Source: Aphanothece sp. CMT-3BRIN-NPC111 (GTDB lineage Bacteria; Cyanobacteriota; Cyanobacteriia; Cyanobacteriales; JAHHGU01). Taken from it: a stretch of DNA of 64,000 nucleotides. Both the position numbers and the translations under genes were made by a program. Under the pieces are notes generated by a model. That model did not search any database and had not been told where the DNA came from. It saw only the letters and a program-made list of their open reading frames with translations. The DNA lies in contig JAHHGU010000015.1 in NCBI GenBank assembly GCA_019359765.1, forward strand, positions 26,914-90,913. The letters run 5' to 3'. Every line of letters starts with the position of its first letter. Within the stretch, counting starts at the first letter, position 1. This document shows positions 16,049-48,366 of this stretch, one piece after another.

Positions 16049-16513
16049 ATGACAACTGCAATGTCCTTTCCTAATGCGCCTGATGTGTCCGCAGATGACT
16101 ACCTGGTTTTGGGCTTAGCCACCTGCTTCTACAAAGAAGACGGTGAAGTTCATCAAGTCAAAATTGTCGAGCCTATCCCCTCAGCGGCACTGGAAGCGAT
16201 TCTCAAGGGGATTCCCACCTCTTATGAGATGGCTTATGCAACTACATTAGGTGATGTAATCCCAACTGAAACGCCCCAGATGCCAGCATTATTTCCAGCA
16301 GAGGCTCAGTTGAGTGATGAGTTTGTAGAAAGAGCGCTCGCAGCTGTTCGCACCTATAAGCGTCGCCCAGAGGCTCAGTCCCATATCCCCATAGGCAGCA
16401 GTCGCAATGACTTCCAATACACGGTAGAACGCAAGCGCGTACTCAATGCCAGCCGCGTTGTTACAAAAGATGACAATGTGAAACAACACTCCCATACTCA
16501 TAAAGTCCTTTAG
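16049..16513 (+). CDS. Hypothetical protein (154 aa)
   Basis: ATG preceded by aagagga at about -8. No motif that I recognise with confidence. Confidence 0.5.
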   Translation: MTTAMSFPNAPDVSADDYLVLGLATCFYKEDGEVHQVKIVEPIPSAALEAILKGIPTSYEMAYATTLGDVIPTETPQMPALFPAEAQLSDEFVERALAAVRTYKRRPEAQSHIPIGSSRNDFQYTVERKRVLNASRVVTKDDNVKQHSHTHKVL

Positions 16514-17128: not shown

Positions 17129-17168
17129 ATTAGGGCGTGTCTGCTTTCAAGAGCAGATACGCCCTAAT
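17129..17168. terminator. 17-bp hairpin between the GST gene and the AT-rich island
   Basis: attagggcgtgtctgct ttcaag agcagatacgccctaat, with one G-U pair. There is no clear U-tract on either strand. Confidence 0.4.
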
Positions 17169-17268: not shown

Positions 17269-18219
17269 TTAGCTCAAATTAACGAATTGATACAGATTTT
17301 TAAAGAAAGAAGGAATATGATACTTTGTACTATCAGTTTCTTCAGAGTAAAATCGTGCTATTTTTAATATAAGTTGATCCTTAAATGCATCTACAGGTCG
17401 AGTCCACTCATTACTAGGTTGAATTTGATTCCAATATTTTTTAGCTTTTCTAATAGTTAGTAGAGCAAAAACTAACTCTTCCTTTTTTGTTATATCATGG
17501 CTATTTTGAAACTGAGATATCCAAGTATCTTTGAGTGTAACTATATCAGTAAAGTCTAATTCAGTACAATAACAAATACGATTACATACTCTTTGAAAAT
17601 GTTTTTGCAAATCAATGTCGCTGGTAGTCTCATCAGCAATATCAAGGTGTAAATCCTCAAGCAGAATATTGCTATTATTGTAAACTGCCTGAGTAGGAAA
17701 ATGGTCAAAAATTTCTTGAAGCTTTGGCAATAGAAAATATGCTTCTTTGTGAATTAAGCCTGTTACCCATATTCGGTGCTGTGAAGCATTAACCTCATTT
17801 ACCTTGGCATTTTTATAAAGATGATTAAAAATTGATTCTGTATCAGAAAAAAGATAATCAGAAAGGCTTTTTACTTGAATATCTAAATCTACAATTGCGA
17901 AGAGTTTTCTTGGTTCAAGATAAGAATGACTGCTGTCGGTTTCGTGTAAATCTAATAGAGAGAAATATGTATTCAGTACATCATCTCTATCCCCACAATT
18001 GAAGAATTGTGGGAGAAATTCTTTCCACCAAGTTGGAACACAAGCCTTGTAAAAGTTGGCATCTGGCATACTCTCCATTTTTCCGTATGCCTGGGGAGAA
18101 GGTCTGCCCTGTAAATCAGGAATGTTACCCTCACAAAGTACAACCAGTTTATTGCGGATTCTGCGAGAAGTGAGAATTACTTCGCAGTGTTGCCTTAGCT
18201 GCTCTGGGTTCAGACTCAT
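17269..18219 (-). CDS. DUF4435/Toprim-like protein (OLD-nuclease-type Toprim; AriB-like)
   Basis: The preferred start is the ATG at 18219 (MSLNPEQLRQ...), which overlaps the upstream stop as ATGA. Motifs: KLVVLCEGNIPD (Toprim Glu), CGDRDDV, FAIVDLDIQ (DxD) and GLIHKEAYFL. About 316 aa and AT-rich. Confidence 0.6.
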   Translation of the reverse strand: MSLNPEQLRQHCEVILTSRRIRNKLVVLCEGNIPDLQGRPSPQAYGKMESMPDANFYKACVPTWWKEFLPQFFNCGDRDDVLNTYFSLLDLHETDSSHSYLEPRKLFAIVDLDIQVKSLSDYLFSDTESIFNHLYKNAKVNEVNASQHRIWVTGLIHKEAYFLLPKLQEIFDHFPTQAVYNNSNILLEDLHLDIADETTSDIDLQKHFQRVCNRICYCTELDFTDIVTLKDTWISQFQNSHDITKKEELVFALLTIRKAKKYWNQIQPSNEWTRPVDAFKDQLILKIARFYSEETDSTKYHIPSFFKNLYQFVNLS

Positions 18220-19718
18220 ACTGGCTGTTCTGACTGCTTTAAAAGCTTTGGTTCTAATTCTTTGACATGAGCAGGTGTAAGGGCTTGACACAATTCATAA
18301 GAGTGAGTTGCTAGAATGTATTGATTTGTCGGTGCCCACTGAAGTAAGTCTAAGACAATCCGATACTGCCAATCTGGGTGTAACGCAATCTCAATTTCAT
18401 CCATTAGCACAATCGCATCCTCAACGTTGCGGTACTTTAACCACATATAAATACTTAGTCTCTTTAATTCACCATGACTTAAATCTTCTGGATAAAATTC
18501 AACATTCCCATCATTTATCAATGGTTTGAAAGTTATTTCTGAAAGATTGGGACTTAGATTAATTTGCTTATTAGCTAGTAAAGAATTTAAGTCATTTAGT
18601 AGAGCTTTATAAGCATTACCATACTCTCCGGTCTCTATAGCTTCCTTAAAATCTTTATCCCGAGCGGCTTTAAAAGCATCAATAAGAATATCAACTTCAA
18701 GGAAATCATATGTAAAAAGACCTGGAATGCCAGATCTAGCTTCTTTAAGAAGTGAGTAATAATTATTACTAAAAGCATAACTATCTTGCTTCTTGAATAA
18801 GAGTTTGTTTGTTTCCCTACTTAAAAAAAGAAAGACTTGAGTTGATGGAGCGGCAAGAAAAACTTTGTTTGACAGACTTTCCAAAAATGGGCTTATCTCT
18901 TTTGGTCCTAAATTACTTACTTGGCAGACAAGGGCTTGATTATCACTACTATCGGAATCAGATGAATAATTGCATATGTATATCAAATTTTTTGAGTTTA
19001 AAAAGCTTGTTATTCTATTTATACTAAAAGATAAGGTGACAAGCTCGGAATTAATCCGATCATAAGTCTCTTTCAATTTATTTAATTGTTTTGTAGCTTG
19101 TGCTTGCATGGTTAGTATTAAGGTCATATCAGTTTTCCCTGTTTCTCGATATTTATTAAACTTAGTAAATTGTTCTAATCGATGTGAAAGCTCAGTAAAC
19201 CGAGATCTGTTTTCAGGAGTGACAAAATTTTTTATATCTTCTAAGCCAGAAATAATATTTTCTAATTCAATTCGATCCTTTGCCAAACCAGACACGTTTT
19301 TTCTTATGTTTTCTAGCTCTGGAATCATAGAAAACTTTAGTTTGCTGCCTATGTTGTCATTGCTGTCATGTTCTTTACTTACAGATTCTTCAATTATTAG
19401 TTGCTCAATATAGGAATCTGGGCAACCGAAAAATTCAAGCTCTATTTCTCTGCCCTCATGCAAAATATTAATAATTGCAAGTGATTTGCTGCTACTACCC
19501 TTCAAATGAAAATATTTTAGTATATTTTTTAGAGCAGCTAGCCTATCAGGAGCAAAAGCGCAGTGTAGTAGTACAAAAATTAGCTGCAACAATGTACTTT
19601 TTCCACCACCGTTTTGGCTACCTAAAGGGAAAATTCTAGGAGAAAAGTTTTTTTCAAAGACAATATCAACATCTTTAAGGACTCTAAAATCAGGAACTTG
19701 AATTCTTTGTAAATGCAT
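18216..19718 (-). CDS. ABC/SMC-like ATPase with a coiled-coil insertion (AAA_15/AAA_21-type; AriA-like)
   Basis: N-terminal LQRIQVPDFRVLKDVDIVF; Walker A GSQNGGGKSTLL; about 250 aa of helical insertion; signature LSHGELKRL; Walker B AIVLMDEIEIALHPD; H-loop ILATHS. Confidence 0.75.
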   Translation of the reverse strand: MHLQRIQVPDFRVLKDVDIVFEKNFSPRIFPLGSQNGGGKSTLLQLIFVLLHCAFAPDRLAALKNILKYFHLKGSSSKSLAIINILHEGREIELEFFGCPDSYIEQLIIEESVSKEHDSNDNIGSKLKFSMIPELENIRKNVSGLAKDRIELENIISGLEDIKNFVTPENRSRFTELSHRLEQFTKFNKYRETGKTDMTLILTMQAQATKQLNKLKETYDRINSELVTLSFSINRITSFLNSKNLIYICNYSSDSDSSDNQALVCQVSNLGPKEISPFLESLSNKVFLAAPSTQVFLFLSRETNKLLFKKQDSYAFSNNYYSLLKEARSGIPGLFTYDFLEVDILIDAFKAARDKDFKEAIETGEYGNAYKALLNDLNSLLANKQINLSPNLSEITFKPLINDGNVEFYPEDLSHGELKRLSIYMWLKYRNVEDAIVLMDEIEIALHPDWQYRIVLDLLQWAPTNQYILATHSYELCQALTPAHVKELEPKLLKQSEQPV

Positions 19719-20023
19719 ACAAAATCCTGTTTTCTTAGGAAGGAATCAATCGAAAGTAGTTTCTTGCCGTTAGCTTCGAGGTATAGCGCTTTTATTTTAG
19801 CCCACATAGTTAGGCATTATTAACTGTCTATCCTCTAACCGTTGCTGCAAGCCCAAGCTATAGCGGGTAGTTCTTTTGAGCGTTTATTTTGGACATTCCA
19901 GCAGGAATTTGTCTTGGGTAGCGCTGCTGGCGCTTTTGGGATTAGCGGGTAAATCAACTTCTCCAGCGGCGCTGGGTATTCCTTAGCTAAAAGAATGCTG
20001 CGATTATTAAAATAATTGGTTTA

Positions 20024-20056
20024 TAAAAAAAATAGGCACCGACAAGCAGTGCCTAT
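20024..20056 (-). terminator. Rho-independent terminator of psbK
   Basis: The minus strand reads ataggcac tgcttgtcg gtgcctat followed by tttttttt. It lies 25 nt downstream of the psbK stop. Confidence 0.75.
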
Positions 20057-21607: not shown

Positions 21608-22057
21608 TTAAAAGCAGAAATCACCGTCGTCGATTTGGACATCCCACTTGGCTGAGAGGACTTGCGTAACCATTGCTTCTAGGGCAGCAGCATTGATGTG
21701 GCGCGTACCTTCATCTTGCAGGGGGTTCGACAGGGGGATTAGCCGCAACTGGCGATTGTCATGAATCAGATCGAAGTAGGTTTCTTGTTCTAGAGATTGG
21801 GTTAGTTGCAGGTAATCAAAACTTTCGACGTTGAGATAAAGGGAATGGTTGGCAATCAGCGTGGCTCTTTGCAGGTCGGCAAACACCTCTAATAGGCACC
21901 CTTCTCCCTGGCTCTGCAATTGGCCATCAAGGGTGTGGATGTAGCGAACCCGCCCTAAATCAGCTAGCAGGCGTCGTATGTCTTGCTTGTTGACAATGAT
22001 GCCAGTGTCAATGATGCAGGGAGCTGGTAGTCGAGGCGGAGATTGATCGTGACTCAT
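21608..22057 (-). CDS. Hypothetical protein (149 aa)
   Basis: Clean ORF with typical local composition. No recognised motif. Confidence 0.5.
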   Translation of the reverse strand: MSHDQSPPRLPAPCIIDTGIIVNKQDIRRLLADLGRVRYIHTLDGQLQSQGEGCLLEVFADLQRATLIANHSLYLNVESFDYLQLTQSLEQETYFDLIHDNRQLRLIPLSNPLQDEGTRHINAAALEAMVTQVLSAKWDVQIDDGDFCF

Positions 22058-23894: not shown

Positions 23895-24989
23895 CTAAAT
23901 ATATTGTTGCAGCACTTCAACGGTGGCTTTTCCTGTTTTAGCCCAGCTGAAGTGGCTAGCTCTGGCGATACCGGCTTGACGAAGGCACGATCGCCACTCA
24001 GAAGACTCTGCTATAGTCTGCATGGCTTCGGCAATTTCCCCCACATTATAGGGGTTCACCAATATAGCAGCATCACCAGCAACTTCTGGCAGAGAGGAAA
24101 GGTTAGAAGTAATCACGGGTGTCCCGCAAGCCATCGCTTCTGCGACTGGCAAGCCAAAGCCTTCCCAGAGGCTAGGAAAGACAAGCGCGATCGCTTGATT
24201 TATTATCGTCGGCAGTTGGGCGTATGGCACGTAGTCGAGGAATTTCACCTGATTGGTTAGGCCCAGCTGTTCCACTTGCGCCATCAAAGAGCTGGTATAG
24301 CGCCGGTCAGGTGGCCCTGCTAGCCATAGTTCGTAGTCGTGGCAGCTGGGTAAGGCAGCGAAGGCGTTAACCAGGCGTTGCAGGTTTTTGTAGGGATCAT
24401 GCCTACCTATGTAGAGAAAGTAGTTGCTGGTGGGTAAATTGAGAAAGCGAAAGCGATCGGCATCATATGCCAGAAGAATAGGCGTAATTTTTTCAGATGG
24501 AATATTGAAAAAGTCGATCATATCCTGAGCGGTGGCGGCGGAGTTGCAGATAATATGCTCAGCTTGGGCTACAACTTGGGGTATGTAGTAGCGGAAGTAT
24601 GGTGTCAGGGGTGAAAAGGGTTTGGGAAAGCGCAGGGGGATGAGGTCGTGAACCATCACCACATAGCGGCAGTTTGAAAACAGAGGTGCTTCAGGGATGG
24701 GGGAAAAGAGGAGATGCGATCGCAACTTCTGATAAATTTGCGGTAGATGCCATTGAGTCCAGATCAGGCGGCGGAAGTGGCCTGCGGTTCCTTGCGCTGG
24801 CGTTAAGTTCGCAGGGACTGGGTAGCAGGTATAGTTAGGCTTAACTTGCGAAACCAGTAATGTAGGATTGAGAGGCTGTAGATGTGGAAATAGATTGGCA
24901 GAATAAGTTGTAATGCCGGTTGGTTTAGAAGTTAGAAAAGATAGATTAATTAGCAATTGATTGTCTAGAGAATCATGTATACCTATCAT
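23895..24989 (-). CDS. Glycosyltransferase, GT4 family
   Basis: C-terminal EX7E region [26 protein letters not shown]. The start overlaps the upstream stop as ATGA (24986-24989). Confidence 0.85.
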
Positions 24990-26146
24990 GTCATAAGATA
25001 TTTGTAAGCATTAATTGTTTCTTTAGCAGTTCTCTCCCACGAAAAAAGTTTAGCTCTTTCTTTACCTTTATCAATTAATTCCTGGCGAATTGAGGAATCG
25101 CTGATTACTTTCAAAATCGCATCTGCCAGCTGTGTTGGATCGTTGGGGTCAACTAACAGAGCAGCATCTCCTGCTACTTCAGGTAGTGATGAAGTATTGG
25201 AGGTGACAACTGGAGTGCCTAGTGTCATTGCTTCCAATACAGGAAGACCAAACCCTTCATAGTAAGAGGGATAAACAAACACATCAGCTTTTGAATAAAA
25301 GTGGGCAACTAAATTATCACATAAGTAATCTAAGTGATAAATATGCTGTTCCCACATACTACTTTTAATAGCTGTAAATATAGGTTCATAGTGCCATCCT
25401 TTTTTACCAACTAAAACTAATTGATGCTCAATATTATAATCATTTTTTAACAAGTTAAAAGCTTTAATTAAATTAATAATATTTTTTCTTGGCTCTAGCG
25501 TACTTACAAATAATATGTATGGCTTTGAAAAGTCATATACTATATTTAGATCTAATCTACTAGCTATATTGTTATAAATGTAACCCTGATAATAGCGGCT
25601 AGCTAGGGGAGTTACACAAATCCTATTAGGTTCTACTTGGAGATACTCAACTATATCTTTTTTAGAGCTTTCTGAAATTGTAATAACTAAGTCTGTCCAT
25701 TTTAAGGATTGCTGAACTCTTCCTTTATATCTTTTAACACTTGAATTTACATAATTAGGATACTTAATAAAAGTAACATCAGGAATCGTCATAACTTTTA
25801 AGCTTTTCTTACATGGATAAACAGTATAATCATTACCATGAACAATATTGGCATCTTGAAACCCATTTTCAAAAGCAGATAAAATTGGATTAGGGAATCG
25901 AGCTAGTAAGTTAGATATTCTAACAGGAATAGGAAGCATGTAAAGGTTAGAATAACCTTGTATTTTTTCTGGAAGAACTAGCTGACGAGTTAGCCACTTT
26001 TTCAAGCTAGGTTGATAATAAATACCTAGTTGAAAATTTTCAGTTTTTTGTAAAATATGAAGTGATTGAATTAAGTTATAAACATAAAATCCAACACCAG
26101 TTAACTTGGGTAGTAAAGGCGTTGCATCAAATACAACTTTTAACAT
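24986..26146 (-). CDS. Glycosyltransferase, GT4 family (AT-rich)
   Basis: Motif YPSYYEGFGLPVLEAMTLGTPVVTSNTSSLPEV. 386 aa. Confidence 0.85.
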   Translation of the reverse strand: MLKVVFDATPLLPKLTGVGFYVYNLIQSLHILQKTENFQLGIYYQPSLKKWLTRQLVLPEKIQGYSNLYMLPIPVRISNLLARFPNPILSAFENGFQDANIVHGNDYTVYPCKKSLKVMTIPDVTFIKYPNYVNSSVKRYKGRVQQSLKWTDLVITISESSKKDIVEYLQVEPNRICVTPLASRYYQGYIYNNIASRLDLNIVYDFSKPYILFVSTLEPRKNIINLIKAFNLLKNDYNIEHQLVLVGKKGWHYEPIFTAIKSSMWEQHIYHLDYLCDNLVAHFYSKADVFVYPSYYEGFGLPVLEAMTLGTPVVTSNTSSLPEVAGDAALLVDPNDPTQLADAILKVISDSSIRQELIDKGKERAKLFSWERTAKETINAYKYLMT

Positions 26147-26206
26147 AATTAAAACTAAACTCTAAATGCTTAAACTTCTGAATTTAAACTTATACAGCTA
26201 GATACT

Positions 26207-27670
26207 CTAGCGATTGCTTCTGTAATGGTGAATAATTTTTTTTACTTGCTTATGTAATAATTTTCCAAATAGGGGATTAGCATACAGATGATTAACTACA
26301 ATATCTATAAATTTATATCTAGCGCCAACCATATGAGGGTTTATATCTAATTCAAAGTACGGATATTTTAAGGTTTCACATACAGATAAAACATGTTCAA
26401 AAGAATAGCCTTTATTTACAGGCGTACTATCTATGATCTCATTTAAAGCAGGTACAGTCACATTATCTAAATCACACTCTTGCTTCAGTGTCTTTATGGC
26501 ATTCTGGCTAATGTCTGCCAATAATTTTGGATTTTCTAAACACCAAATAAGTTTTTTATAAATTTCAAAAATATCGTTCCTATCCTTAACTAATATAGCA
26601 TTATATTCATTTTTAAGGATTTCACTGTTACCGGCTTTTTCAGTAAGCATAACTGGAACTTGCTTCGACATAGCTTCAAGTGGCGCATAAGCAAATGGCT
26701 CATTATCATTAAGTAGAAAAATAGCAATATCGTATTCAGATATTTTTTGTTGAAGAGATTCTTTATTTAAAAATCCTTTTAAAACAAATACTTTAGCTAA
26801 TTGAGCGTCATTTTTAATTTCTCTATCTAGCCAATCAACAAATAAATCTTCACCTTTACCGTATAATTCTATTTTTATTCTATCTTTATAAGCAGATTTA
26901 GCTATAAGGTTAGCTAATTTAAACAAAATTGCAACTCCTTTTATTTCTGAGAGTTGACCAAAATACAATATTTTTAAATAATTAAGTCTTTTTTCACCAG
27001 ATGATAATGTTGAATCAGATAATATTTGATCTTCATACAAATCCTGATCATTATAAATCCTATCTAATTTAATCCAATTGTAGATTACCTTATTGTAATA
27101 ATATTCTCCGAATATAGTATTTGATTCTAAAATTTTTTGAGAACAGGATACTGCTGTAACTTGAGATTTAAGATGTTTCCATTTAGCTGTCAGATTCACG
27201 CTTTTACTGTAATCCTGGATAACCGCATCAATATGCTCCATTAAATGGATAATAACCTTCGTTTGACATGAAACAATAGTATCAAGGATACCAATTGGGC
27301 CTATTCCCAAAGGATTAAATAACCAAACCAAATCAGGACTTTCAGTTTCAATAAGCCTTCTTAGCGCTATACAATTAGGTTCAATGTATCCGGCAAAAGC
27401 CATTATTTTTTCATAGCAATATATACTATTTGTTTGAAAGTGATGATTGTACTGCTCGTCATAATAGTTGACAGGATTGAATATACGTCTAACATCTATA
27501 TGCTCAGGATGCGGATAGTTTTTGAAAGTCTCGTGGTTTTCAGATGAAGCAACAATAACTGAATGACCTATCTGGCTGTATTTTTGGGCTATTTCTAAGC
27601 AACCAAGTTCATATCCTCCTCTAACGTGAGGGGGAAATATGTTTGATACCAATAGTATTTTCATATTCAT
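26207..27670 (-). CDS. Glycosyltransferase (GT-B fold, GT4-like) with extra C-terminal region (AT-rich)
   Basis: N-terminal KILLVSNIFPPHVRGGYELG. Donor-domain remnant EPFAYAPLEAMSKQVPVMLTEKAGNSE. 487 aa. Confidence 0.7.
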   Translation of the reverse strand: MNMKILLVSNIFPPHVRGGYELGCLEIAQKYSQIGHSVIVASSENHETFKNYPHPEHIDVRRIFNPVNYYDEQYNHHFQTNSIYCYEKIMAFAGYIEPNCIALRRLIETESPDLVWLFNPLGIGPIGILDTIVSCQTKVIIHLMEHIDAVIQDYSKSVNLTAKWKHLKSQVTAVSCSQKILESNTIFGEYYYNKVIYNWIKLDRIYNDQDLYEDQILSDSTLSSGEKRLNYLKILYFGQLSEIKGVAILFKLANLIAKSAYKDRIKIELYGKGEDLFVDWLDREIKNDAQLAKVFVLKGFLNKESLQQKISEYDIAIFLLNDNEPFAYAPLEAMSKQVPVMLTEKAGNSEILKNEYNAILVKDRNDIFEIYKKLIWCLENPKLLADISQNAIKTLKQECDLDNVTVPALNEIIDSTPVNKGYSFEHVLSVCETLKYPYFELDINPHMVGARYKFIDIVVNHLYANPLFGKLLHKQVKKIIHHYRSNR

Positions 27671-27689
27671 AAAATAAATATTTACTCTT

Positions 27690-28835
27690 CTAACTTTTAC
27701 GAATTATATTTTGGAGATTAAACCAATAATTGTCCCAGAGAAACTGCTGTCGAATAATATCTTTGGCTTGCTCTATAAGCACTCTATATTCATTATTAGA
27801 TAGAGAACGGACAAGGTTCATTTTTTCGTAAAGAGACTTAGGATTTCTTTCTTGATATACTAAATGCTCAATCTTTAACACGCTCATAACTTCTTTCAAA
27901 GCAGGCAAGCTAGAAGTTATTGGTAGAGTATTATTGAGTATAGCCTCAATAACTACTAATCCTAAAAGCTCACTATGGGGAAATACTCTATTTTGATAAG
28001 TAACAGAAGATGAATTAACAAGCAAAGCAATAGAACTGGCTACTATACGGTCTTTTTCGCTTGAGACAACTTCTCCAACTATATGTACATTTTTACCTCG
28101 AGATTTGGTTTCTAAAAACTTTTTATAAGCAGGGTTTTCAGAGTCAGGTCCAATAATTACCAAGTGATCCGTTTTCGGCAAGGCATCAATAGCAACTTCA
28201 AAAGCTTTGTGAGGTAAAAGCCGACCTACACATACAAACTTATTTTTATCGGTAATGGATATATCTGATGATATTTCTAAATTTTTTTTCCAAGCGCCAG
28301 CATAGAGGTGATTCACAGATTTAGTGTACTGTTGGGTTCTCTTAGCAGAGTATTTAGATACCTCTATAAAATAGTGATTAGGAAGCCTGCTGTACCTAAT
28401 CCAAAAATCTTCTGCATACTCTTCAAATCCATGATTTGTCAGATAAATAATTTGCTGATTGTGAGTTGCTAGTAGCAAATCATATACAGAAGCAGTTGCT
28501 AAGTACTGATGTATCCATAAATACTCATATGCAGGTACGCTTTCTAAAATTTCTCTAAATGTTTCTTGGGTAGTATAAGATACACTACCAGCATTAAATA
28601 CTTGTTTTGTGAACCATTTATGGAAACGTCGTTCTGAACTATCTCCTATAAAACTTCTGTCAGAGGGCGCTACAAGCTCGCACCCTATATTTGCCATAGA
28701 TATAGACTTAGCGCAGTTTAAAGTATAATTTTCACCTCCGCCGGTAGCTGATATTGGATATAAGCTTATAAGTAAAATACTTTTTAATTTATTGGGCATT
28801 CCATCGTGATCAAATAGGCAATTTGTATATGTCAT
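27690..28835 (-). CDS. Glycosyltransferase (GT-B fold, divergent; AT-rich)
   Basis: Motifs ILLISLYPISATGGGENY and FVCVGRLLPHKAFE...ELLGLVVIEAILNNTLPITSS. The likely start is the Met at 28799, which removes the overlap with the upstream gene. Confidence 0.6.
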   Translation of the reverse strand: MTYTNCLFDHDGMPNKLKSILLISLYPISATGGGENYTLNCAKSISMANIGCELVAPSDRSFIGDSSERRFHKWFTKQVFNAGSVSYTTQETFREILESVPAYEYLWIHQYLATASVYDLLLATHNQQIIYLTNHGFEEYAEDFWIRYSRLPNHYFIEVSKYSAKRTQQYTKSVNHLYAGAWKKNLEISSDISITDKNKFVCVGRLLPHKAFEVAIDALPKTDHLVIIGPDSENPAYKKFLETKSRGKNVHIVGEVVSSEKDRIVASSIALLVNSSSVTYQNRVFPHSELLGLVVIEAILNNTLPITSSLPALKEVMSVLKIEHLVYQERNPKSLYEKMNLVRSLSNNEYRVLIEQAKDIIRQQFLWDNYWFNLQNIIRKS

Positions 28836-29577
28836 TCAAATTATTATTAATAGAGTTGAGATAATAATCTACTGCTTCATTGGTTTTTCCAATAAACATT
28901 ATTTTCCCCTTATTTAGCCACACTGCTTGTTGACAAGCCTCTTGAATAAACTTTAAATCATGGGACACTACTAAAACTGTTGCATTACCATCCCAAAACT
29001 TTTTAATTCGCTGCTTGCTCTTATTCTTGAAACTTTCATCACCCACAGATAGTACCTCATCTAAAATTAGAATATCAGGCTGCACATCCGTAGCAATAGC
29101 AAACCCTAAACGAGACACCATGCCTGAAGAAAGGCCCTTGACAGGAACCAGCGCGTGGTCTTCTAGTTCAGCAAATTGCAAAATTGACGAGGCTCTTTCT
29201 CGCATTTCTGTCCTAGAGAATCCTAGCAATACGCCATATAGCATAATATTATCCATCACCGAAAGCTCGGAATCAAACCCGGCTCCTAGTTCAATTAGCG
29301 GTGCAATCTTGCCTCGTACGCGTACCGAACCACTACTAGGTTGCAAAATGCCACAAATTACTTTTAATAAAGTTGATTTACCTGAGCCATTTGCACCAAT
29401 AATCCCCAGTTTATCACCAGCTTTTACAACCAGATCAATTTGCTCCAGGACTAATTTTTGGGTAGGCTTGCGATATTTGCCCTCCAATAAAGATAATATA
29501 GTTCTCTTCAAGTCATAAGAAAACTCTTCTTGTGTCCGTCGCCACAGGTAAACCTGATCTAATCGGATAATTTCCAT
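28810..29577 (-). CDS. Polysaccharide/O-antigen ABC exporter, ATP-binding subunit (Wzt/TagH-like, short form)
   Basis: Walker A GANGSGKSTLL; signature LSSGMVSRLGFA; Walker B ILILDEVLSVGD; H-loop VVSHD. 255 aa with no C-terminal glycan-binding domain. Confidence 0.88.
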   Translation of the reverse strand: MEIIRLDQVYLWRRTQEEFSYDLKRTILSLLEGKYRKPTQKLVLEQIDLVVKAGDKLGIIGANGSGKSTLLKVICGILQPSSGSVRVRGKIAPLIELGAGFDSELSVMDNIMLYGVLLGFSRTEMRERASSILQFAELEDHALVPVKGLSSGMVSRLGFAIATDVQPDILILDEVLSVGDESFKNKSKQRIKKFWDGNATVLVVSHDLKFIQEACQQAVWLNKGKIMFIGKTNEAVDYYLNSINNNLNDIYKLPI

Positions 29578-42873: not shown

Positions 42874-43554
42874 CTATTTTAAAGAGTTGGTCACACGCCA
42901 AATATAAATAAATAGAACTCCGGAAATCACAGCTCCTAGAAGCCACTTAAAGGTATTTTTTATCAGAGCCAAACGTCTATCTGCCCAAGCCGCTTCTGTT
43001 TTGGGACGAATTGTTGCCCTTACTTTATTAATTTCTGACAATAGCGCGCTTTTCGCTTGCTCAGGATTTTTGATATTTAATGAGTTTGGTCTAACTTGAT
43101 TGATGTAGTTGACAGCATCATTTATATCTTGAGGTGTACCCTGATTCACTTTGTTCTCAAGATTTTCCAGTTGAGATACCTGCTGACTAACTTGAATATT
43201 GATTTGATTATTGATTTGATCTCTGAGCCGAAAGCCGTCAACAACTAATAAAGGAGATAGCAGCAGAAATAGCACCCCAGCTAGTAAAGCAGCCCAGGAT
43301 AAAAATCTCAAGAGCAATCGTTCAGATTGCGATCGCACATATTCAGCTCTATAAAATACCAGCCCTAGGGCCACAAAAGGTACAGCTACACGCTCTACCA
43401 AGAACCCTATTGTCTGAAATTCCCAAGCTGGATTCATAAACTTCGGCGGAAACAGAATATCAATGAAATCAAATAAAGTCAGTACCAATAAAACGTATCC
43501 TATTGGGCGAAGCAAAGAGCTAGAAAGCCATTCATTGTTTACTGATCGAGCCAT
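42874..43554 (-). CDS. Membrane protein with a C-terminal coiled coil; possibly HpsJ-like (hormogonium polysaccharide locus protein), unverified
   Basis: 226 aa with 3-4 N-terminal TM segments, then a QINNQINIQVSQQVSQLENLENKVNQ coiled coil and a terminal TM. It sits 4 nt upstream of a GT4 gene. The HpsJ suggestion rests only on my recollection of the architecture. Confidence 0.4.
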   Translation of the reverse strand: MARSVNNEWLSSSLLRPIGYVLLVLTLFDFIDILFPPKFMNPAWEFQTIGFLVERVAVPFVALGLVFYRAEYVRSQSERLLLRFLSWAALLAGVLFLLLSPLLVVDGFRLRDQINNQINIQVSQQVSQLENLENKVNQGTPQDINDAVNYINQVRPNSLNIKNPEQAKSALLSEINKVRATIRPKTEAAWADRRLALIKNTFKWLLGAVISGVLFIYIWRVTNSLK

Positions 43555-43873
43555 TTGAACAAAATCCTGATTAGATTACATAGATTTTAGTGACTTTAAC
43601 TAGCTTCAGTATTTTTAGAAGCGTTAAATTTCTAAATTATACCAAGAATACCCCCATTTTATAAAGCATAATAAGTATTTTCAATATTAGATATTTAAAA
43701 TAAGTGCGTGAGAGAAAATAAACATAACTTTTTAGGATGGGTGATAGGTAAGAGGTTGTTAGCAATTGGGAAGACATAATTCTCGATCACTAACCTCTAC
43801 AAATAAAATTTAATTATGCTAACTTAATTAAAAATAATTTTATTCGCACTTTATAAAGAGCTTTAGGTATAAC

Positions 43874-44560
43874 TTAAGGCTTAGGAAAACGTGGATACCA
43901 CCACTTGTACCAAGAAAACCATGCATTTTCCAAACTTGAATAGGCATTATTAGGCGAAATATTGTTTAAAGGTATAGATGAATGAAACCATAGACAGCGC
44001 ATATCTCGAATATTTTGTTGACCGAATAACCAATAAAGTAAACGGTCGGGCTGGATATCGTAGGTATATCGGTTATGTTTAAATTGCGGAAGCGTGACAG
44101 TGCTACCACCACGCGGGTTAATACAACTTGTAAGGTAAGCTCGTTTTTGATAAACAAAAAGCATATAGTACCCCACTTTTTTCTCGTAGCGGTCAATTCG
44201 CGATGAAAGTTGGATAGCAGATGAGGGGATAGGAGTGTAGTTACTTATAAAACCCATAACATTGCCGCTAGTTTCAACTGTATAGCGCATCTCAATATCA
44301 AGAGTAAGTTTATTGCGGCTATATTTATAAACCATACCAGAAAGTAATTTAGGATGCTTAGCAACATCCTTTGTCAAAGCACGACTTTCTAAAGGCTGCC
44401 ATCCGGGTAGTGGAACTTCTGGAGGAAAAACAAAAGAAGCAGGGGTAACTGTACGCTGGGCTGCGGTAGTTGGATATAAAATTGATTTCCCTAAAACAGA
44501 GAGAACACTACCAAAGGTTATAACCAGAAGAAAATGCCGAATTTGCGGCCAATTAATCAT
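43874..44560 (-). CDS. Exosortase-adjacent conserved protein (cyanoexosortase system-associated type)
   Basis: 228 aa with an N-terminal TM/signal anchor IRHFLLVITFGSVLSVLG. It begins 5 nt after the exosortase stop. Assignment is by position and architecture only. Confidence 0.5.
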   Translation of the reverse strand: MINWPQIRHFLLVITFGSVLSVLGKSILYPTTAAQRTVTPASFVFPPEVPLPGWQPLESRALTKDVAKHPKLLSGMVYKYSRNKLTLDIEMRYTVETSGNVMGFISNYTPIPSSAIQLSSRIDRYEKKVGYYMLFVYQKRAYLTSCINPRGGSTVTLPQFKHNRYTYDIQPDRLLYWLFGQQNIRDMRCLWFHSSIPLNNISPNNAYSSLENAWFSWYKWWYPRFPKP

Positions 44561-44565
44561 AGATT

Positions 44566-45423
44566 TTAAAACTCTTGAGTTTCTTTTTCTTGATTTACAG
44601 GTTTATCGTTTTGAAGCAGAAGATTACAAAATAAGCCAAAAAGCAAGACTGAAATTACAGAGAATATTAGTGAACCATCTCCGCCATGCCAGTATAGAAA
44701 TGCTTCTTGTTGGGAGGATGAAGCTAGAATAGCCATAATTGCAACTCGAATACCATTAATTATAAATCCCAGCAGTACTGCTACAATAGGAGCCACTATT
44801 TTGGGCACCAAATTGGTAGGAAACATAAATAGAAAAATAACGGCTATTCCTAATAATTGAATAATGGCACCATAGCCGGAACAACCAGGATTTACCTCTA
44901 CGCTTCCAGTAGGAAGAACAACATTAACACCTTGACGCGAAACTTGAAACCCTAAATACCAAAGTAAAGAAGCTGCGAATTGGGCTGTAAATTTAGATGT
45001 ATCAATAAAGTGTGAAACAAATCCACTATGTGGAATAAGAAAACAAAGAATAAGCAACTCTTGCCAATATTGCTTTATTCCTTTGACACCAGAAGCAATT
45101 AGCCCAAGTCCCAAAGCTGAAAGTAAAGGTGAAAGCCGCAAAAAGAAATCAAAGCCGCCTAATGATTGGCTTTTAATCAGAACTATTGTAATAATAAATA
45201 GCCCTAGTGAACTGCCTATGATACCACTTTTTAGATTTAACTCGTTGTGTTTTTTAAATAAAATAGAACACACAGCAGCCCAAAAGAGAATACTTGTGGA
45301 CAGCAAATTATCATCTCCTGTTTGTCCGACTGCCGTAATATGAATTGCAATCAACCCTGCTCCTATCCCCAACAAACAAAATTGAGAATTCGTTAACAGC
45401 TTAAAAAAATGGTTAACTTTCAT
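44566..45423 (-). CDS. Exosortase (cyanoexosortase-type, EpsH family)
   Basis: 285-aa polytopic protein with the exosortase catalytic-signature pattern: GSVEVNPGCSGYGAI (Cys), INGIRVAIMAIL (Asn..Arg) and a downstream WHGGDG (His). Confidence 0.8.
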   Translation of the reverse strand: MKVNHFFKLLTNSQFCLLGIGAGLIAIHITAVGQTGDDNLLSTSILFWAAVCSILFKKHNELNLKSGIIGSSLGLFIITIVLIKSQSLGGFDFFLRLSPLLSALGLGLIASGVKGIKQYWQELLILCFLIPHSGFVSHFIDTSKFTAQFAASLLWYLGFQVSRQGVNVVLPTGSVEVNPGCSGYGAIIQLLGIAVIFLFMFPTNLVPKIVAPIVAVLLGFIINGIRVAIMAILASSSQQEAFLYWHGGDGSLIFSVISVLLFGLFCNLLLQNDKPVNQEKETQEF

Positions 45424-45710
45424 TGTCCAAAATTTAGATATTTTTTGCAGTATACGCTATATATCCAGGTAAGTTATGCGCCTATCCTACAGCATTGTTG
45501 TCTAAACCCAATAAAATAAGTAAGTCTGGGTCGTACTATCGTAGATTAATCTTTATCTTAATTAAGTTAAGTTGGCTTATACCCTTTTACCCTTAAAGCG
45601 CTACAAATAAATCTGCTTCTTTTTTGCTCCCCCGCTCCGGGTGCTGATGTGTAGCATCATGAAGAGAAATTGGTATTAGTTAGCACCACTACTGGAATTA
45701 AGAGAGCGAT

Positions 45711-45740
45711 TAAAAAAATCAGGGGCATCGCACCCCTGAT
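45711..45740 (-). terminator. Rho-independent terminator after the PEP-CTERM gene
   Basis: The minus strand reads atcagggg tgcgatg cccctgat followed by ttttttt. It lies 37 nt downstream of the stop at 45777. Confidence 0.7.
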
Positions 45741-45776
45741 CTCCCCCCGACCTTTTGCGCCCCACTATAGCGTAGG

Positions 45777-46499
45777 TTAATGAGGCAACTTCTTCTTAAG
45801 TTTTGATGACTTTCTCTGTAAAAAAGCTCCAATTCCTAAAGCCACACCTGAACCCAGGAAAGTAAAGGGTTCGGGAACAGCTTCGTTAACGAAAGATTCA
45901 CTCCCTCCATTGGAAAAGCCCTGACCGTGAATACCGAGGCGTAGATTACCTCTTTGTAAGTCTGTAATGACAGCATTAAAGGGATCGTCAAAGCCCGATC
46001 TAACATTGAAGAGGATGCCTATAGATTCTCCTGGATTTACACCGTTAGGTTGCACTGGAGAATTTGAGTCTGCCGAGTAATCAGCAGAAAAACCAATATC
46101 TGCTCCTCCAGGTAGATTTCCCGGTCTCGCATATTGAGAAAAGCTGACTCCACTACTGTTTCGAATCTCTGCCACACTATAGAGACTAAATGGGCTATTG
46201 TCATCAAAGTAAATATCCGTAATTGATGAAGCAAGAGCTGTCATCCCATCCTTGGCTCTATTATAGAACTCAAATAATACCTGCCCCGTACTAGTTTGCG
46301 AAACTTTTGCTACAAACTGGCTTTCTCCAGTTTGGCAATTTCCGGCATTGGTATCAGAGCTACAACCAAAGTTCACATAAACCGGAGGAAAAGATACTGC
46401 TCCTGCTGGCGTTGCCGTTGAGATAACGGCAGAAATTGCAACAGTAGCTACAGCAGAGGAGAAAACTACAGATGGTCGTAAGGCTTTTAATTTGATCAT
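45777..46499 (-). CDS. PEP-CTERM sorting-domain secreted protein (putative exosortase substrate)
   Basis: N-terminal signal peptide ...AISAVISTATPAGAVS. The C-terminus has VPEP, a TM segment FTFLGSGVALGIGAFL, and a basic tail QRKSSKLKKKLPH. Confidence 0.85.
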   Translation of the reverse strand: MIKLKALRPSVVFSSAVATVAISAVISTATPAGAVSFPPVYVNFGCSSDTNAGNCQTGESQFVAKVSQTSTGQVLFEFYNRAKDGMTALASSITDIYFDDNSPFSLYSVAEIRNSSGVSFSQYARPGNLPGGADIGFSADYSADSNSPVQPNGVNPGESIGILFNVRSGFDDPFNAVITDLQRGNLRLGIHGQGFSNGGSESFVNEAVPEPFTFLGSGVALGIGAFLQRKSSKLKKKLPH

Positions 46500-46586
46500 G
46501 TCACTTAAATCCTGTAGAAGAATTACAACTTTCTTAAGGCGGGACTGTTGTTTGTAAACTCATCCTCCTGAATCCTTACAAAACTA

Positions 46587-47657
46587 TTAATATGCTCCTT
46601 GCTTTTTCAGAACTACCTCAATGGTTTGGAGCAAGATTTTCAAGTCTAACCAGAGCGACCAGTTTTCGATATAAGAGCGATCTAAACGTACTACTTCTTC
46701 AAATTCCAGAATGTCCGACCGTCCCGACACTTGCCAAAGACCCGTCACGCCAGGCATAACTTCATTGCGAATGAAATGATGCTCAGAACACTTTTCTGCA
46801 TCCCTAACCGATAAAGGTCGAGGTCCGATAAGGCTCATTTCTCCCAAAAGAACATTAAAAATTTGGGGTAATTCATCCAAACTGTAACGGCGCAGAATTT
46901 TGCCTATACGGGTAATGCGAGGGTCGTCTTTAATTTTAAAGAGCACACCATCTTTGGTTTGATTAAGAGCTTCTAATTCTTTTTGTAAATGATCCGCATT
47001 AACAACCATGGTCCGGAATTTCCATACTTTAAATGAGCGACCATGTAAACCAATGCGAGTCTGCTTAAAAAAGACTGGACCTGGAGAGTCTAGCTTGATG
47101 AGTAAAGCGATTGCTAGATAAATTGGTGATGTTGCTACGAAAAACAAGGCAGAGAAACAAAAGTCAAATGCCCGCTTTATCGAAAAACCTGCACCCGTCA
47201 TTAGTGAATACTTAAAACTTTTATAAGGTATTTCTCCCAGTTGAGGAAATCCTTGATTTGAGTAATCTTGGTTTGCTTCAGTATCTAAAATATGCAAGGA
47301 GATGCCATATTTTTGAAAAGTCCACCAAATAAACATTCGATTTTTTATGGCGCCCCAAGCAACAAAAACTTCAGTGACACCCAAACGCTGAATTCTTTCC
47401 AACGTGGCTTTACGATTGGCTCTATCTAGCGAACTAGCATCCAGTAAACCCGCTATTTCATAATTTTTTTCTTTTTTTATTAATCCAGAAATTTTTTCTC
47501 TATCTGTTGGATCGCCAATAATGAAGGTAGATTGGGAACTCGTTAAAAACAGTGCAATAAATCTCAGCCATAATACAGACCAAAACTTATGCGATCCTGT
47601 GAATACAGGTGCCCGTAAATCAACGTTGTTAAATTCATTCCATGTAGAAAATGTCAT
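46587..47657 (-). CDS. Polyprenyl-phosphate glycosyl-1-phosphate transferase (bacterial sugar transferase, WbaP/EPS-priming type)
   Basis: Motifs [27 protein letters not shown] and [21 protein letters not shown]. Confidence 0.9.
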
Positions 47658-47802
47658 ATTTCAGAACCTTCTTACGAGTATGTAAATTTTTAATGACTGA
47701 ATAGTGAAATTGGTTCCTGGGCTTTTCTTATATTCAAGATACGAAAAAAAAATGAATAACTTGTGAAGCAGAGAGTAATTTATTCCAGAAGCTCTGCGAT
47801 CG

Positions 47803-48366
47803 CTACTGGCCTTGAGGTTGAGCCAAAGCAGTTGCAATCTTAGCTGGCAGCGTCAGCAGGTTAAAGGGCTTAATAATGATTGCTTTTACAGGGAGTTCCG
47901 GTTCCGTCCACCGTAGGCACTTGCCTAGTGATGAGGCAGCCGTGTACAAAATGACTGGGATATGTTTAGTAGCAAGGTTCTCTTTGAGTAGGCTCAGGGT
48001 GGTGAGACCATCCATGCGAGGCATAATCAAGTCCAGGAGAATTACATCCGGCTGCATTGCTTCAGCTTGGACTACCCCCTCCCTGCCTGAACTGGCGGTT
48101 AGTACATTCCAGTTTCCGATGGTTTCGAGGCAGAGCTGAATGATTTCTAGGGTATCGCCCTCGTCATCAATGACAAGGATACGTTTAGTAGTCAATGTAA
48201 CAGCTCCCTTCAGCATTGCTTGATTATTATCTTGGTGATGGCTCTGCGGTGGTAATTGCTCTGAATGAAGACAGGAGGCGCAGCGAGCGACACCCATACT
48301 TAAAGTGGGCTGAAGATCTAGCAATAATTCCACTTCCGGCTGATGGCTCTTAGTTGCAAACATCAA
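47803..48366 (-). CDS. CheY-like response regulator receiver with an N-terminal extension and no output domain
   Basis: Motifs ILVIDDEGDT, DVILLDLIMPRMDG, ILYTA and IIIKPF. The first roughly 60 aa are unassigned, so the true start could be internal. Confidence 0.8.
   Translation of the reverse strand: MMFATKSHQPEVELLLDLQPTLSMGVARCASCLHSEQLPPQSHHQDNNQAMLKGAVTLTTKRILVIDDEGDTLEIIQLCLETIGNWNVLTASSGREGVVQAEAMQPDVILLDLIMPRMDGLTTLSLLKENLATKHIPVILYTAASSLGKCLRWTEPELPVKAIIIKPFNLLTLPAKIATALAQPQGQ

Follow-up and report, generated by a model that had tools for sequence, protein, structure and literature searches.

Two adjacent genes lie between psbK and a GST gene in a 64,000-nucleotide stretch of the cyanobacterium Aphanothece sp. 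CMT-3BRIN-NPC111 (contig JAHHGU010000015.1, positions 26,914 to 90,913), which is referred to here at its full length as the window. The first gene encodes an ABC-type ATPase and the second a smaller protein that we call the partner. We consider it probable (at roughly 0.6) that the pair is a self-contained conflict system – whether defensive or of the toxin–antitoxin kind – in which the ATPase would control a Toprim nuclease, on the theme known from PARIS, AbiL, MADS3–4 and RloAB. Confidence in any particular trigger or target is far lower than in the reading itself. Across the genomes that carry it, the module is accessory, fast-diverging and recombining, and its two genes are obligatorily adjacent.

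An earlier reading of the window, made from the letters alone (the sequence-only reading), had placed two genes at this locus, joined by an ATGA overlap and lower in GC content than their neighbours. Both open reading frames (ORFs) are indeed found there on the minus strand, with the overlap as described, and the GC content of the pair is 0.338, against 0.485 in its flanks and 0.45 in the window. An alternative, longer partner ORF that starts at a GTG extends to 18291; because all 79 aligned partner homologues begin at an MS[LF] corresponding to the ATG, the ATG is the correct partner start.

The ATPase and its partner protein

The product of the upstream gene is an ABC ATPase of the AAA_15/21 type and is intact. 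Its Pfam matches to AAA_21 (1.1e-14) and AAA_15 (2.2e-10) lie above threshold, and each of the motifs quoted in the sequence-only reading (Walker A, signature, Walker B and H-loop) is there, with a conservation of 95% or more across the 79 ATPases of the family. The best PADLOC models are PtuA (2e-18) and AriA (1e-15), with one AriA model matched end to end (1.5e-12), and MADS3 models of both PADLOC and NCBIfam match as well. Among sequences in the PDB, the matches are defence ATPases throughout – retron/Septu PtuA, AriA (1e-5) and GajA, the last confined to the C-lobe (2e-4). The PtuA matches are local, covering residues 435–490 of the C-lobe (the region of Walker B, D-loop and H-loop), and the ATPase reaches 56 bits with the NCBIfam PtuA model, against a cutoff of 500.

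Both lobes of the ATPase are strongly conserved, with column conservation of 0.8–0.9 in the N-lobe (residues 1–100) and the C-lobe (280–500) of the 79 proteins. Between them, at approximately residues 100–245, column conservation is 0.11–0.27, and the length of this insertion varies across genomes from 20 to about 160 residues, in frame every time. A helical insertion of about 250 residues between the lobes had been proposed; the variable stretch is there, and moderately conserved sequence continues from it to approximately residue 330. By analogy with related systems, this hypervariable insertion is the putative sensor region.

The partner belongs to a family of 594 clusters at 90% identity, nearly all of them from filamentous cyanobacteria. 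The family is closed: an exhaustive profile search of 1.84 billion representatives ended at 165 clusters (50% identity), which do not grade into DUF4435 or other families. Eleven residues – C29, E30, G31, D53, F56, D111, D113, E159, R214, K260 and W263 – are invariant in 79 diverse partners. The Toprim hallmarks that had been quoted from the sequence, namely a catalytic Glu, a DxD and HKEAYF, proved to be real and conserved in these 79 members, with E30 in VVLCEGN, D111 and D113 in VDLD, and K158/E159 in HKEAYF invariant or nearly so.

An AlphaFold2 model built with 28 close homologues (predicted local distance difference test score, pLDDT, of 57) was set aside; the one built with the 79-sequence alignment has a pLDDT of 94.4 and a predicted template modelling score of 0.91. 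It comprises an N-terminal alpha/beta domain (approximately residues 1–185) and a C-terminal helical domain (approximately 187–315). Strands and helices alternate in the model, with strand 26–29 followed by E30, strand 71–74 by G76 and strand 106–110 by D111xD113, and with a further strand at 150–152. The predicted partner thus has the generic Toprim arrangement, in which a Glu follows strand 1 and a DxD follows strand 3. A Foldseek search of the PDB places AriB from the AriA–AriB complex (8v46_D) first, at a probability of 0.97, with all other hits at or below 0.13; a search of the viral structures of BFVD gave nothing credible.

Below the usual thresholds, the same direction is indicated by the members of the family. 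DUF4435 (PF14491) is by far their most recurrent Pfam family (11 of 79 at E ≤ 1, best 1.5e-4); the scores shown are 13–16 bits, where the cutoff is 27. When the 10 members that diverge most were scanned with Pfam, DUF4435 did not come up, and a second set of 10 gave two matches with coordinates. The sub-threshold matches are collinear, aligning residues 49–125 with profile positions 8–78 and so covering the segment from D53 to the DxD. The top PADLOC models are AriB and AbiLii, each in 3 of the 79 members (AbiLii at best 0.0016), and one member matches the PADLOC model ‘ATPase-Toprim_I-B’.

The order of the acidic residues points the same way. AriB binds metal through E26, D30, D88, E90 and E122 (PMC11464382), and E30, D53, D111, D113 and E159 of the partner follow this five-residue order – a mapping made by order and spacing, with no significant alignment. 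DUF4435 proteins encoded on Klebsiella and Acinetobacter plasmids have the motif order E27, D31, G59-K60, D79xD81 and T106-x5-E112, to be compared with E30, D53, G76, D111xD113 and T153-x5-E159 in the window. At low stringency, hhalign pairs E30 with E27, D53 with D31, and D111/D113 with D79/D81 of the DUF4435 proteins, in an alignment that is not significant.

With the predicted fold taken into account, we read the partner as a Toprim nuclease and a distant relative of DUF4435/AriB that carries insertions behind strand 1 and ahead of its final Glu; by profile threshold, it is a member of neither PF14491 nor AriB. The proposal that it is a DUF4435/Toprim protein therefore survives in part. The Toprim-like model, AriB as the top structure and the acidic residues all speak for it, but the window protein has no match to PF14491 and fails every DUF4435 and AriB profile model.

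Distribution and divergence of the module

Among 185,579 species genomes, 130 loci were confirmed, 80 of which were kept for comparison. In all 80, the ATPase gene adjoins the partner gene; at about 78 of them an intact ATPase gene directly precedes it, co-oriented, with a stop-to-start spacing of −11 to +17 nucleotides in 74 of 78. The tight coupling of the genes, noted earlier from the ATGA overlap in the window, is thus borne out more widely, and translational coupling of the pair appears probable from their arrangement. On a Candidatus Entotheonella scaffold (L075, 2655–6186), a 1.1-kb insert with a 380-residue Pfam-less ORF lies between the two genes, and the GC content of the pair is 0.36 against 0.555 in the flanks; the pair may have been genuinely transferred to a host outside the cyanobacteria and disrupted later. 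The locus of Calothrix sp. NIES-4105 (L077, 5901–6843) retains only the first 36 ATPase codons, next to a partner gene without its first 30 residues, and looks like a decayed copy.

The module is almost confined to cyanobacteria. The 80 loci include about 26 from Microcoleus, nine from Nostoc, and six each from Pseudanabaena and Coleofasciculus/Coleofasciculaceae, with Rivularia, Calothrix, Tychonema and Anabaena azotica as further carriers. Four contigs bear non-cyanobacterial labels (Caldilinea, Pedobacter, Entotheonella and Vulcanimicrobiota), which may reflect either binning errors or real transfers. At 46 of the 80 loci, in Nostocales and Oscillatoriales alike, dapL lies directly upstream of the pair; the other loci have ordinary neighbour genes, most frequently encoding Uma2 endonuclease-like proteins. 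The flanks found in the window are shared by none of the 80. A functional link to tgt, which encodes a tRNA-modifying enzyme, was considered and rejected, as the pair sits elsewhere in other genomes, none of which has these flanks.

Comparison with relatives identifies the pair as an insertion in the window’s lineage. Of the named relatives, Crinalium epipsammum PCC 9333 and an Oculatellaceae metagenome-assembled genome stand closest by Tgt (83–84% identity); these two and a third relative have the order cobS, orf149, tgt, psbK, GST, orf154, psaM, terC with the pair absent and 200–420 bp between psbK and GST. Because this psbK/GST site is empty in relatives, the pair is an insertion here. Two metagenomic sister genomes, by contrast filled at this site, share the order psbK–ATPase–partner–GST with the window; their Tgt is 93–94% identical. 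A two-gene insertion between psbK and GST is therefore supported by three empty and two filled sites. In comparison with the sisters, protein identity is 81% for the ATPase of the window and 84% for its partner, against 93–94% for Tgt and GST, or 93–100% once PsbK is included. Nucleotide alignment of filled and empty sites leaves the exact junctions of the insert undefined, as the intergenic DNA is too diverged.

Two conserved cyanobacterial ORFs without a Pfam family, of 154 (16049–16513) and 149 residues (21608–22057), flank the locus and are syntenic in all relatives examined. The tgt–psbK–GST neighbourhood has repeatedly been hit by other insertions in relatives. In one (L086, 11216–12899), a resolvase and TnpB-like pair (OrfB_IS605/Cas12f1-like_TNB) lies between tgt and psbK, and IS605-type TnpB genes are found nearby in L082 (6818–7666) and in Crinalium (L084, 16401–17597).

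Low GC content might be taken to suggest recent transfer, but the wider sample tells otherwise. The pair is about 10 GC points under its flanks in 78 of the 80 loci, including long-resident syntenic ones, so that low GC is a property of the module and not a sign of recent arrival.

Alleles were also compared at 43 dapL-linked loci. In pairs of genomes whose DapL is at least 99% identical, the partners are 68–95% identical (mean 79%) and the ATPases 74% on average. Between near-identical Microcoleus genomes, nucleotide identity in a sliding window is 94–99% in the flanks, falls exactly within the pair – to 17–36% in the ATPase insertion and 63–85% in the partner – and recovers right past the partner stop. 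The rate of synonymous substitution (dS) between such genomes is 0.48–0.76 in the pair and 0.09–0.17 in flanking genes, a four- to six-fold excess; the ratio of nonsynonymous (dN) to synonymous rates is 0.3–0.44 in the pair and 0.01–0.15 in the flanking genes.

As this divergence lies far above that of the flanks, the alleles must be older than the divergence of their hosts and have been exchanged at a fixed locus. In two comparisons of Microcoleus dapL loci (L012/L009 and L040/L042), little separates the partner genes (dN 0.05, dS 0.12–0.19), while the ATPase genes lie far apart (dS 0.59–0.76), with insertions that differ in length by about 110 residues, which argues for recombination between or within the two genes. 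Genes caught up in an arms race would be expected to show this pattern; housekeeping genes would not. The variable insertion of the ATPase also has a parallel in PARIS, where the trigger-binding regions of AriA are poorly conserved (PMC11464382).

Known systems and rival explanations

An AAA_15/21 ATPase combined with a Toprim protein is the common theme of OLD classes 1–4, PARIS, AbiL, MADS3–4 and RloAB (PMC11464382; PMC10568477; PMC13064643). One of the closest counterparts is PARIS (AriA/AriB, or ‘Class 4 OLD’, from an E. coli B185 P4-like satellite), in which an AAA_15/21 ATPase gene likewise precedes a co-oriented gene for a Toprim protein of about 300 residues, the two ATPase lobes are separated by an insertion, and the presumed sensor region is poorly conserved. 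AriB is, moreover, the nearest solved structure to the partner, and its five acidic residues occur in the same order. There are also clear differences. The partner lies under threshold for the PF14491 and AriB hidden Markov models and superimposes on AriB with a template modelling score of just 0.4; an insertion of about 20 residues separates its E30 from D53, and the spacing ahead of E159 is longer; its third motif is DxD, as opposed to DxE in AriB. Finally, satellites and prophages often carry PARIS, whereas this pair is chromosomal, restricted to cyanobacteria and was found on no satellite, phage or plasmid.

In AbiL (AbiLi/AbiLii, from a Lactococcus plasmid), two genes again encode an ABC ATPase and a protein of Toprim/DUF4435 type, and AbiLii is, with AriB, the sole defence model that recurs among members of the window family. 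By sequence, AbiLii is not significantly similar to AriB, on which it superimposes poorly (PMC13064643); in its lack of significant similarity to AriB it resembles the window family. The AbiLii matches of members are nonetheless sub-threshold, with none for the window protein, and AbiL is borne by plasmids in Firmicutes. As the pair fails the profile tests for both PARIS and AbiL and is without the mobile-element association of PARIS, it is not filed as PARIS. The PARIS-like architecture that had been proposed for it is thus right as to the split OLD/PARIS/AbiL theme, with ATPase before effector, but goes too far in that the effector fails the AriB and DUF4435 models.

Canonical pairs of an ATPase and a DUF4435 protein, such as those of Klebsiella pK708696-4, Acinetobacter pAhaem11616c and the DISARM-linked pair on Trichormus variabilis plasmid C, resemble the window pair in gene order and tight coupling, and in the succession of an N-terminal (V/I)xxxE(G/D) strand, a D-x-D and a T-x4-(K)E. 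They differ in that their partners pass PF14491 at 36–50 bits, which the window partner does not, in that their ATPases, at 325–352 residues, are without the large insertion, and in their location on plasmids or in a defence island. On a 4.4-kb ColE1-type Klebsiella plasmid (L087, 1–1948) and a 6.9-kb Acinetobacter plasmid (L088, 1539–3516), the pair is the main cargo, and its genes overlap or abut. On conjugative cyanobacterial plasmids – plasmid C of Trichormus variabilis ATCC 29413 (L090, 3260–5243) and plasmid2 of Nostoc carneum (L091, 3251–5178) – a 352-residue ATPase and a 288-residue Pfam-annotated DUF4435 protein are encoded, with a DNA methyltransferase gene on one side and that of the DISARM helicase DrmA on the other. 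The N-terminal IIFCEGK of the Trichormus DUF4435 protein resembles VVLCEGN of the window, ‘CEG’ being common to both.

Septu and retron Ec78 are related through PtuA, which gives the best hidden Markov model and PDB sequence matches to the C-lobe of the ATPase. The partner of PtuA, in contrast, is the HNH nuclease PtuB, and the Toprim-like partner in the window has no HNH match in Pfam. On a Clostridioides difficile plasmid (L089, 3323–5337), an ATPase gene is followed by one for a 252-residue Endonuclease_7/HNH protein, right after holin and endolysin genes; by its domains, this appears to be a Septu-like pair in a phage-like plasmid. OLD proteins of Classes 1 and 2 (P2 Old and GajA) differ from the window pair in that ATPase and Toprim are fused there and encoded by separate ORFs here, and Class 2 has a UvrD-like helicase gene, for which there is no adjacent equivalent in the window.

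The sequence-only reading knew of no experimentally characterised pair of this kind in cyanobacteria, a statement that holds only with qualification. Deep et al. (PMC10802264) list canonical AriB homologues from Nostoc PCC 7107 and Caldora, and an ‘unnamed two-gene system in Nostoc sp.’ attributed to Makarova et al. (2011) is mentioned in passages of PMC10802264 and PMC13064643 as an ABC ATPase with a Toprim/OLD protein, structurally distinct from PARIS. With its many Nostoc members, the window family may be that system, or else the DISARM-linked DUF4435 pair may be; the citing passages give no accession by which to compare them. The family may therefore have been noticed already, though not characterised.

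Were the favoured reading of a conflict system correct, a plausible mechanism would follow PARIS (PMC11464382; PMC10802264; PMC12409363). There, a hexamer of AriA sequesters AriB until a trigger of the Ocr type brings about its ATP-dependent release, and the activated AriB cleaves specific host tRNAs (PMC11464382; PMC12409363). An oligomer of the ATPase would hold the Toprim nuclease inactive until the hypervariable insertion between the lobes recognised a phage-derived trigger, whereupon ATP-dependent release would free the nuclease, probably as a dimer, to cut nucleic acid – tRNA being a somewhat more likely target than DNA. Translation or replication would stop, and the infection would be aborted.

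Several results weigh against this reading. The window partner has no match in Pfam, PADLOC, NCBIfam or PHROGs at E ≤ 1, nor at E ≤ 10, and no significant match to DUF4435, AriB, AbiLii or Toprim_OLD models. Its fold match to AriB is weak overall (template modelling score 0.39–0.40, root-mean-square deviation 10.8 Å, E 8.9e-3), and comparisons of the family by hhalign with small alignments of Pfam-positive DUF4435 proteins – local, with low mact, global and with a reversed-template control – were not significant. For these alignments, the Acinetobacter DUF4435 seed gave 14 close relatives only, too narrow a set for a good profile. Profile searches of PDB sequences retrieve not AriB but only a designed protein (E 0.4–0.5); as bona fide DUF4435 proteins likewise fail to retrieve AriB in this way, such searches cannot decide the identity of the partner. 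There is also no guilt by association: the neighbours are housekeeping genes here (psbK, tgt and GST), while at other loci they are ordinary genes, among which neither defence nor mobile-element families are enriched, and no relative was found in 50,697 phage records, 72,556 plasmids or IMG/VR contigs. Finally, OLD-family ATPases can have non-defence roles, as does archaeal Cran1 (PMC12796447).

The last point lends some substance to the idea of a housekeeping or DNA-maintenance pair, in which an SMC/RecF-like ATPase and a Toprim partner, akin to RecF/RecR or to Cran1, would serve repair or the cell cycle of filamentous cyanobacteria. Its purely chromosomal location, its stability beside dapL in two orders and its strictly conserved catalytic residues would suit such a role, which we nevertheless regard as very improbable: the site is empty in close relatives, the 130 confirmed loci are scattered over cyanobacterial genera, the GC content is 10 points under that of the flanks, and between near-identical hosts the pair combines a dN/dS of 0.3–0.44 and the four- to six-fold excess in dS with a large in-frame length polymorphism of the ATPase. 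A selfish toxin–antitoxin module, with the nuclease as toxin, the ATPase as antitoxin and post-segregational or recombinational addiction in place of a dedicated anti-phage role, would account for a two-gene insertion that stands alone among housekeeping genes, outside any defence island, for the tight coupling of the genes, and for old divergent alleles kept at one locus and swapped by recombination. PARIS itself, indeed, acts as a toxin–antitoxin pair (PMC10802264; PMC13064643). Addiction on its own still seems unlikely, since modules of that kind thrive on the plasmids, phages and viral contigs from which this one is missing, and since changing external triggers more easily explain a putative sensor of variable length; in any case, the toxin–antitoxin and defence readings are not mutually exclusive.

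Two further alternatives accept a role in conflict and differ in the enzyme. A bona fide PARIS – an AriA/AriB orthologue with anti-restriction proteins as its trigger and tRNA-Lys, tRNA-Thr and tRNA-Asn as the targets it cleaves – would agree with the gene order and with the sizes of both proteins (500 residues against 464 in AriA, 316 against 305 in AriB), as well as with AriB being the best structural match and the best PADLOC model for members, and with the AriA models that match the ATPase. It is made quite unlikely by the failure of the window partner with every AriB and DUF4435 model, by the closed family of 165 clusters, by an ATPase that scores higher with PtuA than with AriA models, by the separate existence of canonical AriB homologues in cyanobacteria (PMC10802264) and by the lack of any satellite or prophage association. 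The pair could, alternatively, be a split Class 1/2 OLD that nicks or degrades phage or host DNA rather than tRNA, given that OLD and Gabija have Toprim nucleases that act on DNA by cutting it (PMC10568477), that the ATPase also matches GajA and MADS3, and that one member matches the ‘ATPase-Toprim_I-B’ model. This we find doubtful: neither the window partner nor the 79 members match Toprim_OLD (PF20469), no OLD or GajA Toprim structure is among the top 50 Foldseek hits, headed by AriB, and the substrate cannot be inferred from sequence.

Within the favoured reading of an ATPase-controlled Toprim conflict system, a bolder version may be put forward tentatively, as possible rather than probable. 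The family might represent a cyanobacteria-specific, previously unmodelled branch of ATPase–Toprim immunity, its insertion being a swappable sensor cassette of 20–160 residues that is recombined at fixed sites such as dapL. Different filaments would then carry different immune alleles for different cyanophage triggers, and the target may differ from that of AriB.

The locus and its wider meaning

The features of the locus are collected in the table below. Upstream of the pair are tgt and psbK, and downstream, past a palindrome, is a convergent GST gene. The psbK hairpin at the upstream edge is also found 3′ of psbK in the empty-site relatives. The 5′ leader is 88.6% identical in the two sister genomes and occurs nowhere else; it holds a weak promoter-like site (19823–19794), a match not above chance expectation. 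A search of the leader and locus against Rfam, tRNA families included, matched no family, and no integrase and no direct or inverted terminal repeats were found around the insert as hallmarks of a mobile element.

Table. Positions in the window of the ATPase–partner pair, its motifs and its borders
Feature	Position	Strand	Evidence
ABC-type ATPase gene, 500 residues, AAA_15/AAA_21 (OLD/AriA/PtuA-like)	18216..19718	-	ORF, ATG start, profile matches
Partner gene, 316 residues, ATG start at 18219	17269..18219	-	ORF
ATGA overlap of ATPase stop (TGA) and partner start (ATG)	18216..18219	-	Sequence
ATPase Walker A GSQNGGGKST, residues 33–42, Lys40	19593..19622	-	Translation, alignment of 79 ATPases
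ATPase hypervariable insertion, approximately residues 100–245, putative sensor region	18984..19421	-	Column conservation
ATPase signature LSHGELKRL, residues 413–421	18456..18482	-	Translation, alignment
ATPase Walker B IVLMDE, residues 436–441	18396..18413	-	Translation, alignment
ATPase H-loop ATHS, His472	18303-18305	-	Translation, alignment
Span of the partner’s five invariant acidic residues	17743..18132	-	Alignment of 79 members, codons verified
Partner E30 codon	18130-18132	-	
Partner D53 codon	18061-18063	-	
Partner D111 codon	17887-17889	-	
Partner D113 codon	17881-17883	-	
Partner E159 codon	17743-17745	-	
5′ leader, psbK terminator to ATPase start, about 300 nucleotides	19719..20022	-	
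psbK terminator hairpin, upstream edge of insert	20032..20056	-	Terminator-like site
Palindrome between convergent partner and GST genes, likely bidirectional terminator and downstream edge of insert	17129..17168	.	Inverted-repeat search (17-bp arms, 94% complementary, 6-nucleotide loop)

Elsewhere in the window, a stronger low-GC stretch (24986–29577, GC 0.28–0.35) carries a minus-strand run of glycosyltransferase genes, four of whose products are GT4/Glycos_transf_1 in Pfam; the matching place in a sister genome (L083) has different glycosyltransferases, of the GT2 family, and the stretch looks like a variable surface-polysaccharide island. A third lower-GC stretch (42874–48366, GC 0.35–0.41) is an exopolysaccharide/exosortase cluster, with genes for an exosortase (EpsH), a bacterial sugar transferase, a GT4 glycosyltransferase, a response regulator and two family-less proteins.

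Defence against cyanophages is poorly charted in filamentous cyanobacteria such as Microcoleus, Nostoc, Pseudanabaena and Coleofasciculus. The pair described here is a credible, currently unannotated candidate defence module which, as far as its sequences indicate, combines unusually clear population-level signatures with a well-known architectural theme. As Pfam, PADLOC, NCBIfam and PHROGs all fail to recognise the partner, the pair very probably escapes standard defence annotation, and, for this module at least, low GC alone should not be read as a sign of recent transfer. If a PARIS-like mechanism holds true, the principle of an ATPase-sequestered Toprim nuclease would extend to a new and deeply divergent family. 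With dozens of alleles at one chromosomal locus, a variable putative sensor, and breakpoints between sensor and effector, the module could reveal how trigger specificity is encoded.

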